Below, in pieces: positions 11,358-15,898 of a DNA stretch of 64,000 nt. The DNA lies in assembly GCA_964588985.1 (NCBI GenBank), contig CAZPQW010000001.1, forward strand, positions 64,001 through 128,000. Direction: 5' to 3'. Both the position numbers and the translations under genes were made by a program. Numbering within the stretch: position 1 is the first letter of the stretch; every line of letters starts with the position of its first letter. The DNA is from an uncultured Solirubrobacteraceae bacterium. GTDB lineage: Bacteria; Actinomycetota; Thermoleophilia; Solirubrobacterales; Solirubrobacteraceae. The notes under the pieces are model-generated. The model was not told the DNA's origin. It did no database searches and was given only the letters and a program-made list of their open reading frames with translations.

Positions 11358-11499
11358 GTCTACAGGATAGGACGAGTCGCTATATCCGGCCTCCCGGACG
11401 GCCCTCCGGGTCCATCAGGAGCAAACGACGTTGCGGATCGCGTCGGCTGCCCGCCTACGAGCCTCCTTGCCAGTGGGCTCCAGCAGCTCTGCCGAGAGT

Positions 11500-11578
11500 C
11501 GATCCACGGCGTCGTCTCGGTTTGCAACGCGTCCCGAACTCCCCGTTTTTCGCTGGTAGGAGGTTGTTGTTCGAACTT
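11500..11578. repeat. att-like repeat B1
   Basis: tctcggtttgcaacgcgtcccgaactcccc-gttttt...gttgttcgaactt, matches 13753..13833. Confidence 0.9.
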
Positions 11579-11657
11579 GCTGGGTCTTCGCCGCATCGGC
11601 GGGGCCGCGTCTGGTGGCGGGCGTGACCGGGCATCCAAGGAGCCAGCGCGGGTTGAC

Positions 11658-12416
11658 TCAGGCGGCGTGAGGACGAGCTTCCGTGGTGCGCTTATCGATT
11701 CCGTCAAGGAGCGCACTGGTGGCCTCGACCGATCGCGCCAGTCGCGGTAGCTGAGGGGCAGAAATGATCGTTGCGCGGAGGTCCGCTGCCAGCGTCTTGT
11801 AGCCGAGGTCTTCGAGCTGGGCTGGAAGCTCGGGTCTTGAGAGCGGGAAGCTGTGGTCCGCCAAGAGGCGCCATCGCGCGGTGAGGGTGAGCGCTGTCCT
11901 TACCTGCTCAACCGCGGCTTCGTGATCGCCGCTTGCCACCATCGCGCGAGCGATGCTGAGAGACTTCTGCGCTTGCTGGTGCTTGCGAAGCGGATCTGGC
12001 CACAGCTCCTGTTCTGCGATGAGGCTTTTGCTCTCTTGAACGATGCCCGTGTCGAATACCACGCGGCCGAAGCGCAGGGACCAGTGGGTGAAATCATCTC
12101 CATCTAGTAGTCGGGCACGTAGCCGCGCAGGCGAGACGACGTGGACATCAATCTCGTCAGGTAGACAATCGAGCGCGATGGGCGTGCCGATCAGGTGATA
12201 GTCGAGGTCGCTGACCGGCGTGCGGGCTCCGCGCGCCGTCGATCCGGTAAGGAGCAGGGCGTGCGCCCCCCCTTCGCGAGCACGCGACTCGACCATATCG
12301 TGAGCCACGCGTAGCTTCGCCGGCAGCAGTTCTTGGATGCGGTCGGCCTCATTGCTGAGCCGCATCCTCCAGAGGATTTCGTCGAGCGCGCGCTGTCTTT
12401 CGAGCTCGCTACTCAC
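11658..12416 (-). CDS. Minimal nucleotidyltransferase (MNT) with helical HEPN-like C-terminus
   Basis: LLTGSTARGARTPVSDLDY and IDVHV Pol-beta motifs. Confidence 0.75.
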   Translation of the reverse strand: MSSELERQRALDEILWRMRLSNEADRIQELLPAKLRVAHDMVESRAREGGAHALLLTGSTARGARTPVSDLDYHLIGTPIALDCLPDEIDVHVVSPARLRARLLDGDDFTHWSLRFGRVVFDTGIVQESKSLIAEQELWPDPLRKHQQAQKSLSIARAMVASGDHEAAVEQVRTALTLTARWRLLADHSFPLSRPELPAQLEDLGYKTLAADLRATIISAPQLPRLARSVEATSALLDGIDKRTTEARPHAA

Positions 12417-12786
12417 GATGAGCCTCGGCTAGATCGACTGCCGACTCGACTTCCGAAGCCAGGTCCTCGAGTGACTGCTCCCCGAAATCCGGGTCCTCTC
12501 CGTCATATACGGCCTCCTTGCGAGCCACGTTGAGCGTACGCAAGGCTGGTGCGAAGTTCGTCGTGATGGCGCCCTGGGCGTAAAGCTGTTCGGCGGCCTC
12601 AGCCTTCCGCCAGTGATTGGGCTCGATCGAAACGCCATGCTGTTCGGCGAGTGCGGCGATCGCTGCCTCGAGCGAGACAAAGAGCCAGGTGACGGCGTCT
12701 GTGTAGTCCTGAGACGCTACGGCCGGCAAGGCGCGGTCTAGGTGCTCCCGAGCGAGCTGTTGCTTGGTCTTTGGCGACACGATCAC
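12409..12786 (-). CDS. HEPN-domain protein
   Basis: AREHLDRA, YTDAVTWLFVSLEAAI, H, LNVARKEAVY; overlaps the MNT gene. Confidence 0.7.
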   Translation of the reverse strand: MIVSPKTKQQLAREHLDRALPAVASQDYTDAVTWLFVSLEAAIAALAEQHGVSIEPNHWRKAEAAEQLYAQGAITTNFAPALRTLNVARKEAVYDGEDPDFGEQSLEDLASEVESAVDLAEAHRE

Positions 12787-12850
12787 ATGCTACGCCCCAA
12801 GGTTGATGGGGTCGTCGATCCAACGTCATCTGGCCTCTATGCATTGGGGT

Positions 12851-12940
12851 CAAATCGCTCCTCGTGAAGCCTCCGGATCAGAGGCCACGGAGATTTCGAG
12901 AGTCTTCCCGCCATCCCCGTGTTTGTTTGAAGTTCGAACT
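12851..12940. repeat. att-like repeat A1
   Basis: caaatcgctcctc...ggccacggagatttcgagagtcttcccgccatccccgt then gtttgtttgaagttcgaact; 7 substitutions and one fewer C versus A3. Confidence 0.9.
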
Positions 12941-12961
12941 GCGTGAAGCCAAGCGTTCGAG

Positions 12962-13414
12962 TCAGCCGGGGACGTCTACGGCGATGTTAGTGCGGCGAGT
13001 CAGGCCGACAAGCAGGTTGATGTCGTCTGGATCGCCGGTGACGATGGTCACCGCGCAGATCCGGCTGCGTTCCTCGGCCATCGCCACGACCTGTGCATCG
13101 GTCGGCGAAATGTCGTGGCGCGAGAGCGAAAGTGCCTCAGTCCGCAGTACGCCCGCGCGGGTAGCGGCCTCGACGGTCAGTGGCGCGTAGATGTCGTCCT
13201 CTGCGCCGATGGCCTTGATCAGGCGATCGACGAGTGCATCGGAGCGTCGTTGGCCGGATCGCACCTCGGTAAGCACGGGGATCGGGATCAGGAGCGCTCC
13301 ATCGATGCGCAGTTTGAGCACTTCGATATACGCAACGAGCAGGTCCCGGTTCGCGGCCAGCGCGCTGACGCCGCCACTGTCGAGCAGGAAGTCGCGGCGA
13401 GGCCGGTTGATCAC
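12962..13414 (-). CDS. PIN-domain (VapC-like) toxin
   Basis: FLLDSG, VLTEV, ISPTDAQVVAMA, IVTGDPDD. Confidence 0.85.
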   Translation of the reverse strand: MINRPRRDFLLDSGGVSALAANRDLLVAYIEVLKLRIDGALLIPIPVLTEVRSGQRRSDALVDRLIKAIGAEDDIYAPLTVEAATRAGVLRTEALSLSRHDISPTDAQVVAMAEERSRICAVTIVTGDPDDINLLVGLTRRTNIAVDVPG

Positions 13415-13593
13415 TCAGGCCAAGTGTCCGCGCGGCGCTGGAGCTCGGGCAGGTGCTTCGAGCCGTCGGCCCCCTCGGCGACGAGTTCGTCGCGCAACTG
13501 CTGGAGGCGAGCACGCTGGGCGTCACGGAGCTTCGGATCGTCCGCAGGCTGCGGCCCGACGTGCATTGCGATGGCGGCCTCCATTGCATTCAT
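13411..13593 (-). CDS. Putative antitoxin of the PIN toxin
   Basis: Small ORF with ATGA overlap onto the PIN gene; LQQLRDELVAEG. Confidence 0.6.
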   Translation of the reverse strand: MNAMEAAIAMHVGPQPADDPKLRDAQRARLQQLRDELVAEGADGSKHLPELQRRADTWPE

Positions 13594-14404: not shown

Positions 14405-14546
14405 CCGCCCGCCGCAGCGGGTCCCTGAGCGTCATTAGAGGACTCATGGCTGCCGTTAGGTCGATGGGCGGGGAACCATTCGCGGTGGGGCATCCTGCGG
14501 AGTTGACCATTAGGGCGCTGAACGGCTATCGGCGGAGTTCCTAGGA

Positions 14547-14753
14547 CTAAAGTCCCAGTTCGGGAGTTTTTTTTGAGATGGCGACTGTGCTACAGACGAG
14601 CAGTGCCGCAATGACCACTACGAGCCCGTGGAGAGACTGATGAGCAAGACAGTCGACAGCGACGAGTGGGACGATCACGACCAGCCGGAGCGCGACATAC
14701 GCAAGGATCGCGTCGAGTGCTGCCTCACCTCTCTTCTCAAGCCATCGTCGCAT
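14547..14753 (-). CDS. Small two-TM membrane protein
   Basis: MRRWLEKRG followed by two hydrophobic segments. Confidence 0.35.
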   Translation of the reverse strand: MRRWLEKRGEAALDAILAYVALRLVVIVPLVAVDCLAHQSLHGLVVVIAALLVCSTVAISKKTPELGL

Positions 14754-14836
14754 GTGTTGATTGTCGTATGGCCCTAGGACGGAACCGGGTCTCGGCAAGC
14801 AGGTCGAGAGCGAACAGCCTCGGCTAGCAGGAGTCA

Positions 14837-14937
14837 AAATCGCTCCTCATGTAGTCGTCGAATCAGGGGCCACGGAGATTTCGAGAGTCTTCCCGCCATC
14901 CCCCGTTTTTAGCTGGTGCGAGGTCGTCGTTCGAACT
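14837..14937. repeat. att-like repeat A2 (A-type left arm, B-type right arm)
   Basis: 70 bp identical to 15829..15898, then ttttagctggtgcgaggtcgtcgttcgaact like the B1/B2 right arm. Confidence 0.92.
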
Positions 14938-14991
14938 CGCTCATTTTGCTAGTGCTCGAGCTGGCGAACAGCCCGACGATGGGGCGTGGTC

Positions 14992-15438
14992 CTACGCTGG
15001 CTGGTCCTGATCGGGCTCAAGTTGGTCAGGATTTGGCGGCGGGCCTGCGGTCTCTATCTCGGCTTCGGTCCACGCTCTGAGTTGTTCAACCAAGGCGAGT
15101 GCCGCAGATCGGTCCAGGGCTGGCGGTTCCTCGCCCTCGTAGCGGAACTCGACTGCCCAAGGCGACAGCACGTCGGCCTCGGAAAGCTCGTCCGGTGCCT
15201 CAATGTCGTTTTCCTCGACCAGGCCGATGAGGTAGCTCAGCGCGTGGCTCTTCACGAACGTCACCCCGCGAGCGGCCAGTACGGCCTTGATCAGCTTCTC
15301 GGCGGCCTGCTGTGCGTGAAAGCCGATGATCGCGTCGGCCACGTCGGTGTCCGGGCAGACCTTCTGCACGAGCGTCTCGTCATCGACGGCCCTGGCGAGC
15401 AGCACCCGCGCCAGGTCAAGCCGGTCATGCGGCGGCAT
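14992..15438 (-). CDS. HEPN-domain protein
   Basis: IGFHAQQAAEKLIKAVL, KSHAL, AVEFRY. Confidence 0.88.
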   Translation of the reverse strand: MPPHDRLDLARVLLARAVDDETLVQKVCPDTDVADAIIGFHAQQAAEKLIKAVLAARGVTFVKSHALSYLIGLVEENDIEAPDELSEADVLSPWAVEFRYEGEEPPALDRSAALALVEQLRAWTEAEIETAGPPPNPDQLEPDQDQPA

Positions 15439-15745
15439 GGAGCACTCGACCTTCGGTCAACGCGGCGTGGACCATCGTTCCCTTCACGGCCCCCCAGTCC
15501 TCCGCGTAGCGCTCGCTGACGACGACTACATCGAACGGCCTTCCGAGCGGGCGAAGCGCGCGACCGAGACGCACCATCTCGGCATGGCGGTCGCGAGGGT
15601 CGCGCTCTACGACCAGGAAATCGAAATCGCTGTCCGGGCCGGCGTCACCGCGCGCCTGCGAGCCAAACAACACGATCTTGACCGGATCGTCAGCGATAGC
15701 CGCAAGCGTCTGCCCTGCAGCCTCGATGATCTCCTGGGCAACCAT
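15425..15745 (-). CDS. Minimal nucleotidyltransferase (MNT antitoxin)
   Basis: VLFGSQARGDAGPDSDFDFLVV. Confidence 0.9.
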   Translation of the reverse strand: MVAQEIIEAAGQTLAAIADDPVKIVLFGSQARGDAGPDSDFDFLVVERDPRDRHAEMVRLGRALRPLGRPFDVVVVSERYAEDWGAVKGTMVHAALTEGRVLHAAA

Positions 15746-15827
15746 GGCGACACCGTAGCGAAGCCCGCGGATCAGGGCACAGAACGGTAGTCGTCCAGTT
15801 GCGGCAGACGATCTTTGGCGCCCGCCC

Positions 15828-15898
15828 CAAATCGCTCCTCATGTAGTCGTCGAATCAGGGGCCACGGAGATTTCGAGAGTCTTCCCGCCATCCCCCGT
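15828..15898. repeat. att-like repeat A3 (left arm only)
   Basis: Identity to A2 stops right after cccccgt. Confidence 0.92.

Follow-up and report, generated by a model that had tools for sequence, protein, structure and literature searches.

Att-like sites and cassettes downstream of tRNA-Ser(GCU)

The stretch of DNA analyzed here, 64,000 nucleotides from an uncultured Solirubrobacteraceae bacterium (assembly GCA_964588985.1, contig CAZPQW010000001.1, positions 64,001 to 128,000; in the following termed the window), contains four small cassettes in tandem downstream of a tRNA-Ser(GCU) gene, bounded by five co-oriented repeats that resemble attachment (att) sites. These repeats had been noted in a preliminary description made from the sequence alone, and a repeat search combined with alignment recovers all five at the same places between 11415 and 15898, with a likeness far beyond chance. 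Three repeat families can be distinguished. The A family is made up of 12852-12921 (A1), 14837-14906 (A2) and 15829-15898 (A3), with A2 and A3 100% identical over 70 nt and A1 86% identical. The B family comprises 11434-11544 (B1) and 13687-13797 (B2), which share 75% identity over 111 nt, and the third family covers 41 nt of core and right arm at 11541-11581, 13796-13836 and 14901-14941 (85%). Anchor tRNA, sites and the open frames in their left arms are arranged as follows:

6027-6118, plus strand: tRNA-Ser(GCU), anchor of the island (ARAGORN; Rfam tRNA family, 61.1 bits)
11418-11581, plus strand: site B1, core CCCCGT at 11541-11546, right arm at 11547-11581; profile score 59.6 bits
11418-11543, minus strand: open frame in the B1 left arm, 42 codons, stop at 11415-11417
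12837-12946, plus strand: site A1, core CCCCGT at 12915-12920, short right arm at 12921-12946; 85.9 bits
12837-12914, minus strand: A1 left-arm micro-open reading frame (micro-ORF), MAGRLSKSPWPLIRRLHEERFDPNA and stop
13659-13836, plus strand: site B2, six-C core at 13794-13801, right arm to 13836; 61.3 bits
13659-13796, minus strand: open frame in the B2 left arm, 46 codons, its stop overlapping the GTG of the next ORF
14834-14941, plus strand: site A2, core CCCCCGT at 14900-14906, right arm at 14907-14941; 93.0 bits
14834-14899, minus strand: A2 left-arm micro-ORF, MAGRLSKSPWPLIRRLHEERF and stop
15772-15898, plus strand: terminal site A3, core CCCCCGT at 15892-15898, no right arm; 66.4 bits, covering profile positions 8-85 only
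15772-15891, minus strand: A3 micro-ORF, 39 codons

A site spans about 115 bp and consists of three parts, a left arm, the core C(C/T)CCG|TTTT and a right arm ending in GTTGTTCGAAC. The C-runs in B1, A1, B2, A2 and A3 have lengths of 4, 4, 6, 5 and 5, and the right-arm end GTTCGAACT is present in B1, in A1 with its shorter arm, in B2 and in A2, while A3 is devoid of a right arm; in both respects alignment and sequence agree with the preliminary description. The same is true for the identity of A2 and A3, which ceases directly after CCCCCGT. This identity is complete over 70 nt despite unrelated flanking cassettes, whereas A1 differs at 7 positions in the 63-nt coding part, a pattern suggestive of gene conversion among neighboring sites or of an event in the very recent past.

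The end of the left arm, TTTCGAG(A/G)..(C/T)T(C/T)CCG....C(C/T)CCG, reproduces the T-arm and acceptor end of tRNA-Ser in diverged form. Here, TTTCGAG..TCCCGCCAT/CCCCG mimics, as an inexact copy, the GGTTCGAATCC..CTCCG end of the tRNA, and the core C(C/T)CCG|TTTT matches its final bases. Arms of different types are alike at only about 60-65%. RNAalifold predicts 0 conserved pairs for 24 complete sites and thus no attC-like fold, the Rfam search of window positions 5000-20000 (E<=1) returned two tRNAs and chance rows with no family at the sites, and neither promoters nor terminators were found in the repeats, nor any inverted-repeat pair at the sites in the window. The preliminary description has to be supplemented or corrected in three respects: the sites are mimics of tRNA-Ser, their left arms are coding, and the island includes a further element, E0, between the tRNA gene and B1.

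Arrays behind tRNA-Ser genes in related genomes

A site profile was built from 15 copies (nhmmer). In the organism's own genome of 3.4 Mb it yields 8 matches at E<=1 at four places: five in the window, two on contig C24 and one, at C1:294339-294396, that overlaps the 3' end of a tRNA-Ser(GGA) gene. This end reads CTCTCCG|TTTTCACTGGGTTTGAGGTCGTTGCTCGAACT, i.e. ...GGGTTCGAATCCCTCCCTCTCCG|TTTTCACTGGGTTTGAGGTCGTTGCTCGAACT, meaning that a right arm adjoins the final bases of a genuine tRNA.

By plain DNA search, site A2 matched in 2 of 60 relatives; the translated A arm and the profile proved more sensitive. Together, the window and 15 loci from 12 genomes of the genus gave 53 profile matches, all on one strand within each locus. 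ARAGORN places a co-oriented tRNA-Ser upstream of the array in 13 of these 16 sequences, and GGA, CGA, GCU and UGA isoacceptors all occur. At four loci (L044, L047, L050 and L054) a right arm directly continues the 3' end of the tRNA itself, visible as a right-arm-only match. The order within arrays follows a pattern in which the first site is a tRNA::right arm fusion, internal sites are complete and the last one lacks a right arm. Units measure 0.5-2 kb, contain one two-gene module each and follow one another in numbers of up to 5-6; in some relatives, sites can lie 3-7 kb apart. Behind tRNA-Ser(CGA), the number of sites in an array differs between genomes, from 1 to at least 4.

A sequence-only covariance model, constructed from 24 complete sites, finds matches in 90 of the 151 genomes of the genus that are at least 85% complete and in 66 of the 105 high-quality ones. 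In an order-wide draw outside the genus (E<=1e-5), weak matches appeared in 2 of 40 genomes from other genera of the family and in 0 of 107 from the other four families. In addition, a pattern scan with one genome per species retrieved 73 stretches. Thirty-seven of these are titled as Solirubrobacterales or Solirubrobacteraceae metagenome-assembled genomes (MAGs), records that possibly overlap with the genomes behind the fetched loci, and each of the 37 exhibits both the 35-nt spacing and model matches (98 in total). Four other loci with the 35-nt spacing, one from an 'uncultured bacterium' and three from other phyla, gave no model matches. A tRNA-Ser is present in 15 of the 37 named loci (17 genes), and sites are located downstream and co-oriented in 15 of 15. 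Other tRNA calls in the 37 loci were one tRNA-Pro, one tRNA-Arg and one doubtful tmRNA. Site orientation equals tRNA orientation in 13/13 and 15/15 loci of the two sets. Two site patterns had no match among viral contigs.

Two arrays carry additional insertions. On contig C24 (11700-12820), a second small array of the same genome has an IS481-like (rve) transposase inserted in an A-type left arm, truncating the micro-ORF, followed by a ParE/RelE-Phd-like cassette and a truncated A arm. In locus L058 (G255:C1:2831000-2843000, positions 2800-9760) a 7-kb interval extends from the tRNA-Ser(GGA)::right-arm junction to the next sites and holds three extra tRNAs (Leu-UAA, Val-AAC and a short Ser-AGA), which suggests a phage-derived insert in the array.

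Re-assortment of cassettes and position of the breakpoints

Each cassette of the window recurs in relatives with other neighbors, so that the gain and loss of cassettes at the repeats that the preliminary description had led one to expect is indeed seen. In BLASTN comparisons of window positions 1-26000 with the fetched loci, copies share 72-88% DNA identity. Cassette 1 (11543-12923) is found in G117 (locus L045) with 82% identity over 1394 nt, its 252-aa and 125-aa ORFs being 78% and 86% identical at the protein level. Cassette 2 is present in G117 (87.6% over 1078 nt) and in G093 (86% over 913 nt, reaching from the A1 arm to the B2 core), and its PIN-like protein is 77-93% identical among copies. 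The two-gene part of cassette 3 recurs in G072 (86%), G117 (84%), G093 (83%) and G018 (72%), and cassette 4 in G124 (88% over 793 nt) and G117 (82% over 744 nt). In G117 (locus L046) cassette 4 precedes cassette 3, the reverse of the order in the window. The protein conservation (77-93%, 86% and 78%) indicates that the cassettes are kept as working genes.

Cassette 3 is especially informative about the breakpoints. Its location is behind tRNA-Ser(GCU) in the window and within a tRNA-Ser(GGA) array in G018; in G072 the match begins inside tRNA-Ser(CGA), with the cassette directly behind that tRNA. In the alignment, the window, G072, G018 and G117 are homologous from CCCCGTTTT rightward, through the right arm and cassette 3, but what precedes CCCCGTTTT is a B arm in the window, the true tRNA-Ser(CGA) in G072, a C-type arm in G018 and a B-like arm in G117. 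G093 features a B arm homologous to that of window B2 and continues with unrelated DNA from the core onward. Every breakpoint in this alignment falls at CCCCG|T, and by comparison of these sequences the crossover is assigned to a position in or next to C(C/T)CCG|T.

A coding left arm

Read on the minus strand, the A arm encodes MAGRLSKSPWPLIRRLHEERF, its ATG being the reverse complement of the CAT in ..CCGCCAT.., which adjoins the core. The consensus peptide has 22 residues, MAG(K/R)xSKSPWPLIRRLHEERFG. A1 and A2 differ at seven positions, which fall at every third base and are without exception synonymous, and among 42 distinct A-arm copies the variability at codon positions 1, 2 and 3 amounts to 0.09, 0.10 and 0.22. 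The third-position excess is clearest in codons 14-22, which were unconstrained by the selection pattern used to collect the copies. This substitution pattern argues that the predicted A-arm peptide is under purifying selection. Conservation ends just after ..RFG in 42 of 42 distinct copies, and a stop follows within 0-17 codons.

The aligned sequences, as we read them, show a homologous LTGRLSKH..(..)WERI.EL...RFG in C-type arms, and B arms contain an open frame of 38-46 codons, G.SGR(V/I)A..(..)L..L..EL..P....ARR.A.AAIR, and then a stop. The start codon is variable, with ATG in most A arms, ACG, AGG or ATC in some, CTG in C arms and none in B arms. Altogether, the left-arm frame begins at the core and runs for 21-46 codons to a stop; across the right arm, the reading frame varies from copy to copy. 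A search for long proteins carrying the A peptide gave 10 weak matches of 102-244 aa with no credible domain, one of which reads out of a truncated methylase, and we dismiss the long open frames from the translated A-arm search as chance frames in GC-rich DNA. Nothing above 0.85 was returned from the ESM Atlas for the 39-aa ORF. An integrase of the SSV type that is split by attP was considered and rejected, given the short left-arm frame, the varying frames of the right arm and the lack of a long peptide-bearing protein.

The peptide may be an accessory recombination factor, a short ORF coupling expression, or a relic of the coding region of a master element. The short ORF in attI1 of class 1 integrons provides a parallel for the second option. 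The relic option leaves the constant end of conservation unexplained.

Cassettes and their cargo

The genes between the sites are the following:

11582-12836, minus strand: cassette 1, 252-aa ORF and 125-aa ORF
11658-12416, minus strand: 252-aa ORF with GS..DxD nucleotidyltransferase motif; weak nucleotidyltransferase matches only
12409-12786, minus strand: 125-aa ORF, HEPN fold in the predicted model
12947-13658, minus strand: cassette 2, PIN-like 150-aa ORF (12962-13414) and upstream small ORF (13411-13659)
13837-14833, plus strand: cassette 3, two-gene module (13875-14174 and 14171-14404, 4-nt overlap)
14547-14837, minus strand: small ORF in the last ~420 nt of cassette 3
14942-15771, minus strand: cassette 4, MNT antitoxin (15425-15745) and HEPN toxin (14992-15438)

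Cassette 3 is thus located on the plus strand and the other three on the minus strand; its final ~420 nt are not part of the unit shared with relatives. The preliminary description had assigned toxin-antitoxin pairs to all four units, and this stands to different degrees. In cassette 4, both proteins are recognized by Pfam (PF01909, 6.3e-11; PF05168, 2.2e-14), with MntA_antitoxin at 3.5e-9 and under the NCBIfam cut-off, and as a nucleotidyltransferase encoded beside a HEPN protein the predicted pair clearly corresponds to the definition of type VII MNT/HEPN toxin-antitoxin systems. For unit 1, HEPN is upheld by the structure model of the 125-aa ORF, a helical bundle with a predicted local distance difference test score (pLDDT) of 88 whose best matches in the PDB are HEPN/HepT proteins (2hsb, TM 0.72), while its nucleotidyltransferase stays weak. 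The PIN match of unit 2 (E 0.0019) is under the Pfam cut-off, and the BrnT-like match of unit 3 is faint (E 0.018). The ribbon-helix-helix (RHH) partner proposed for unit 3 was not recovered, as its partner ORF has no RHH match. The structure model of the cassette 3 toxin was unusable (pLDDT 39) and profile searches against the PDB were empty or gave chance hits; profiles of the PIN-like and 125-aa proteins had no matches among PDB sequences. PADLOC matches in the window are restricted to the MNT protein of cassette 4 and a methyltransferase of E0.

For a broader view, 72 ORFs from 34 cassettes, picked by GC content at third codon positions, an imperfect guide, were scanned with Pfam. Many gave no match; the remainder include PIN (5), PIN_10 (2), DUF4160 (3), DUF2442 (2), NTP_transf_2 (3), HEPN (2) and UPF0150 (2), one each of Phd, PemK, MazE, VapB, ParE, HicA, CcdB and TIR_2, and furthermore one insertion sequence (IS) transposase and one RHS protein. 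By these domain matches, the sample is dominated by predicted toxin-antitoxin families, and no recombinase or transfer domains were detected among the 72 ORFs.

Search for a recombinase

None of the units encodes an integrase of its own, as had been stated before: Pfam and six-frame searches with PF00589 and PF00239, reading through stops for PF00589, gave neither a match nor an integrase fragment in the window. Thirteen PF00589 matches exist in the genome, of which the nearest on contig C1 (36998-37501) lies about 33 kb upstream of the tRNA. Screening of 12 relatives (G111, G117, G124, G093, G030, G073, G159, G258, G217, G110, G356 and G350) revealed no PF00589 match within about 14 kb of the listed sites. 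The larger cassette ORFs are IS transposase, RHS or TIR proteins or have no match, and none is a recombinase. Wide intervals in G215, G255, G198 and G183, inspected by eye, contain IS481- and IS30-like transposases and extra tRNAs and no integrase. Two candidates were discarded. The integrase on contig C15 of the organism itself, beside tRNA-Ser(CGA), is on the 5' side of that tRNA and has no counterpart in arrays, and two identical integrases in G073, which also has a lone left arm about 15 and 26 kb away from them, adjoin neither a site nor a tRNA.

Proposed mode of array formation

We interpret the island as a tandem array of small, non-autonomous integrative cassettes that were stacked at the 3' end of tRNA-Ser by conservative site-specific recombination, and we assign this reading a probability of roughly 0.75. 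Each cassette would carry a site of about 115 bp with tRNA-mimic left arm, core and right arm; a circular form of the cassette would recombine with the tRNA end or with any resident site and thereby become inserted. The products would be a tRNA::right arm junction at the start, complete attP-like sites in between and a left arm with core at the far end. The three kinds of junctions observed are therefore the attL, attP-like and attR products expected of repeated integration at a tRNA 3' end. Since searches of the window and of the surroundings of arrays in 12 relatives came up empty, the recombinase would act in trans and not be encoded in the arrays. The tRNA 3'-end target together with the short overlap region suggests a tyrosine integrase of a tRNA-Ser-targeting element. 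The toxin-antitoxin or defense modules would lend the array stability and may be of use to the host as a stockpile. The integron-like stacking of minimal cassettes without intI or canonical attC put forward in the preliminary description finds support in the PF00589 search, the RNAalifold result and the relatives. A further-reaching idea, which we put forward tentatively and consider possible rather than probable, is that of a genus-wide chromosomal equivalent of the integron in which any tRNA-Ser 3' end serves as a platform, the recombinase is unlinked and the micropeptide (about 22 residues in A and C arms, with a 38-46-residue relative in B arms) is a working part. It could then, for instance, act as a recombination-directionality or integrase-recruiting factor, or as a device coupling cassette expression to the array.

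Several observations weigh against the stacking of non-autonomous cassettes as proposed here. No recombinase is linked to the sites, and an autonomous element with the same arms did not appear in the genomes examined. The stretch is contained in 24 sequencing runs from rhizosphere, soil or peat, and no circle or excision joints occur in the Logan contigs of four of them (X7, X8, X10 and X17), a null result that is uninformative on excision because such contigs are short, of low depth, broken at repeats and drop rare forms. The DNA of a given cassette diverges by 12-28% between copies, which leaves room for the exchanges to be old. The model offers no account of why the left-arm peptide should be under purifying selection, the toxin-antitoxin nature of units 1-3 is based on weak or structural matches, and homologous recombination between sites could cause part of the re-assortment. 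Furthermore, the loci were chosen for holding sites, so that counts describe arrays and not genomes, and most genomes are MAGs, although such arrays are also present in the single-contig relatives G030 and G115.

Classical accretion followed by decay would make the units remnants of complete integrative and conjugative elements (ICEs), integrative and mobilizable elements (IMEs) or prophages that were never mobile in minimal form. In the parts of the sources available to us, this is a described route to cis-mobilizable elements (CIMEs) and tandem islands (PMC5704250; 10.1101/2020.12.28.424599), and E0 with its ~5.3 kb, the 3-7 kb intervals of some relatives and the toxin-antitoxin modules, which are what deletion would spare, are all in line with it. 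Independent decay would, however, lead to different end points, and the same site-bounded minimal units recur at different tRNA-Ser genes; integrase fragments are found neither in the window (six-frame, through stops) nor near the arrays of the 12 relatives, and left-arm conservation ends after ..RFG in 42/42 A-arm copies, all of which makes decay an unlikely explanation. It is also conceivable that site-specific seeding was followed by homologous recombination or gene conversion between the 70-115-bp sites and that no dedicated recombinase is active today. The sites are 80-100% identical over 70-115 nt, A2 and A3 even 100% in spite of differing cassettes, and the failure to find a recombinase in the window or near the relatives' arrays would be explained. 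Still, where a tRNA meets a right arm or one arm type (A, B or C) gives way to another, identity at the breakpoint is limited to some 5-6 bases, too few for RecA-type exchange, and with different arm types alike at no more than 60-65% we hold this to be improbable.

Two further explanations differ in the agent or in the nature of the repeats. Movement of the modules by the host's XerC/XerD, as proposed for dif modules of Acinetobacter plasmids, would draw on the parallel that the latter are likewise recombinase-free, often of toxin-antitoxin type and shuffled (PMC13141974, PMC6449649, as far as available to us), and two high-scoring Xer-like integrases are encoded on contigs C9 and C6 of the same genome. 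All sites are in direct orientation, however, and the ~115-bp tRNA mimic tied to tRNA-Ser is not a dif-like 28-mer, a comparison made with dif sites in general; this scenario is accordingly very improbable. Finally, the repeats could be dispersed regulatory or repetitive extragenic palindromic (REP)- or miniature inverted-repeat transposable element (MITE)-like elements, or a small gene with leader preceding toxin-antitoxin operons, given that each repeat is situated upstream of an operon on the minus strand, that the left arm is a conserved small ORF and that the B2 frame has a stop overlapping the next start codon. This we regard as scarcely credible. The genes of cassette 3 are on the other strand, the repeats contain no promoter-like site and no Rfam family, the genome has only 8 matches at four places, and in the arrays of relatives the sites are tied to tRNA-Ser 3' ends with att polarity. 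The genome-wide REP/MITE-like scatter that the preliminary description had named as a counterargument is at odds with this profile scan and with the arrays behind tRNA-Ser in relatives, and a MITE or REP identity was rejected on account of the few copies (8 in 3.4 Mb), the lack of an inverted-repeat pair and the absence of a consensus fold.

Comparison with known systems

Integrons consist of small, co-oriented cassettes that are rich in toxin-antitoxin genes, bring their own recombination sites without a recombinase gene and re-assort. The arrays described here resemble them in having small cassettes with co-oriented sites, one for each cassette, in their richness in toxin-antitoxin modules and in re-assortment between arrays. 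They differ in that there is no intI beside the array and in that a tRNA-Ser gene instead of attI forms the platform. Unlike attC, the sites are of the double-strand type, ~115 bp long with 0 conserved pairs, and mimic a tRNA end (R''/L''-L'/R' boxes were outside the search), and in place of single promoterless co-oriented ORFs the cassettes hold two-gene modules on either strand. Because the sites mimic the tRNA-Ser end and the arrays are anchored there, the nearest kind of known structure is the accretion of integrase-less islands and not the integron.

In dif modules, 28-bp XerC/XerD sites are arranged in alternating or inverse orientation. Such modules share with the cassettes that they are recombinase-free, site-bounded, include toxin-antitoxin genes and are extensively shuffled (PMC13141974, PMC6449649); here and in the following, comparisons refer to the available parts of the cited sources. 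The sites studied here are, unlike those of plasmid-borne dif modules, direct ~115-bp tRNA mimics on chromosomes behind tRNA-Ser. Tandem accretion of CIMEs at the 3' ends of tRNA and other genes has been reported (Pavlovic 2004 and Bellanger 2011, as cited in PMC5704250). Both CIMEs and these cassettes are att-bounded, lack integration and transfer genes, are lined up behind the target's 3' end and have a partial target copy at the junctions. CIMEs are decayed relatives of ICEs or IMEs, range from kb to tens of kb, usually number no more than two at a site and rely on a neighboring ICE to move them in cis (PMC5704250). In contrast, units here measure 0.5-2 kb, form arrays of as many as 5-6 and are present behind each of the four tRNA-Ser isoacceptors encountered, and the same minimal units recur across genomes. 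No related ICE, IME or integrase fragment was found in or near the arrays in the organism's own genome and 12 relatives, where MAGs may lack such elements. Tycheposons and the Prochlorococcus islands likewise show repeated integration at one tRNA, older elements pushed inward, partial tRNAs and tandem junctions; they possess a tyrosine recombinase of their own and leave degenerate remnants (10.1101/2020.12.28.424599), whereas here there is none per unit and the units are conserved. In tandem islands catalogued by Islander, a tRNA gene (tDNA) fragment in tRNA orientation is likewise found at the far end of each unit, with an integrase in each member that has no equivalent in any unit here (PMC4383910).

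A description of such arrays did not turn up in the full-text literature searched, a coverage that leaves out subscription journals and supplements. Already described are CIMEs without an integrase, the presence of tDNA fragments at the ends of units and integration that takes place repeatedly at a single tRNA. What is distinct are the scale and regularity, the range of isoacceptors, the re-assortment across genomes, the conserved 115-bp site with its embedded ORF and the failure to find any partner element. To our knowledge, integrons, the textbook system of cassette capture, are essentially confined to Proteobacteria and few other groups. Here, a lineage of soil actinobacteria that is little studied and for the most part uncultured seems to have assembled an equivalent independently. 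If active, the arrays would mean that integrase-less mini-elements can form a genus-wide exchangeable pool, one that is overlooked by island finders demanding one integrase per island. Dozens of natural attL, attP-like and attR junctions offer a test bed for finding the recombinase, and they raise the puzzle of why an attachment-site arm should encode a peptide that appears to be under purifying selection.

Element E0 and the surroundings of the array

Behind the ...CTCTCCG end of the window's tRNA-Ser(GCU) gene comes CCATTTGC, a right-hand junction of another type. Because this CCGCCATT(T)GC junction is also seen behind A- and C-type left arms in G030, the 5.3-kb stretch between tRNA and B1 is taken as a further unit of the island. 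Its features are:

6119-11417, no strand assigned: element E0, ~5.3 kb, low GC, ending at the B1 left arm, no recombinase
7050-9254: 734-aa methyltransferase-like ORF (Pfam; weak mad2-like match in PADLOC)
10026-10706: GDSL hydrolase (Pfam)
11133-11357: HARE-HTH ORF (Pfam)

E0 may be a defense element. Its GC content is 0.56-0.60 compared to about 0.70 outside, and the low-GC island as a whole (0.56-0.65 versus about 0.70) starts at tRNA-Ser(GCU). Low GC runs on to about 19500, and the island may thus reach beyond A3. To the right of the array, a TetR and SCO4226-like gene pair (15957-16902) forms a sharply bounded block of about 945 bp that is present in 14 other genomes of the genus with 81-88% identity. 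In 11 fetched loci of relatives the pair is not beside att sites or tRNA-Ser, and since it is found elsewhere, away from both, the right flank does not allow an empty-site comparison.

A last observation concerns the tRNA genes themselves. In the window, tRNA-Ser(UGA) (5866-5958) and tRNA-Ser(GCU) (6027-6118) are divergent and 69 nt apart. In G030 the two are co-oriented and separated by 1.5 kb with two att sites in between, which implies that a small array behind tRNA-Ser(UGA) pushed the two genes apart.

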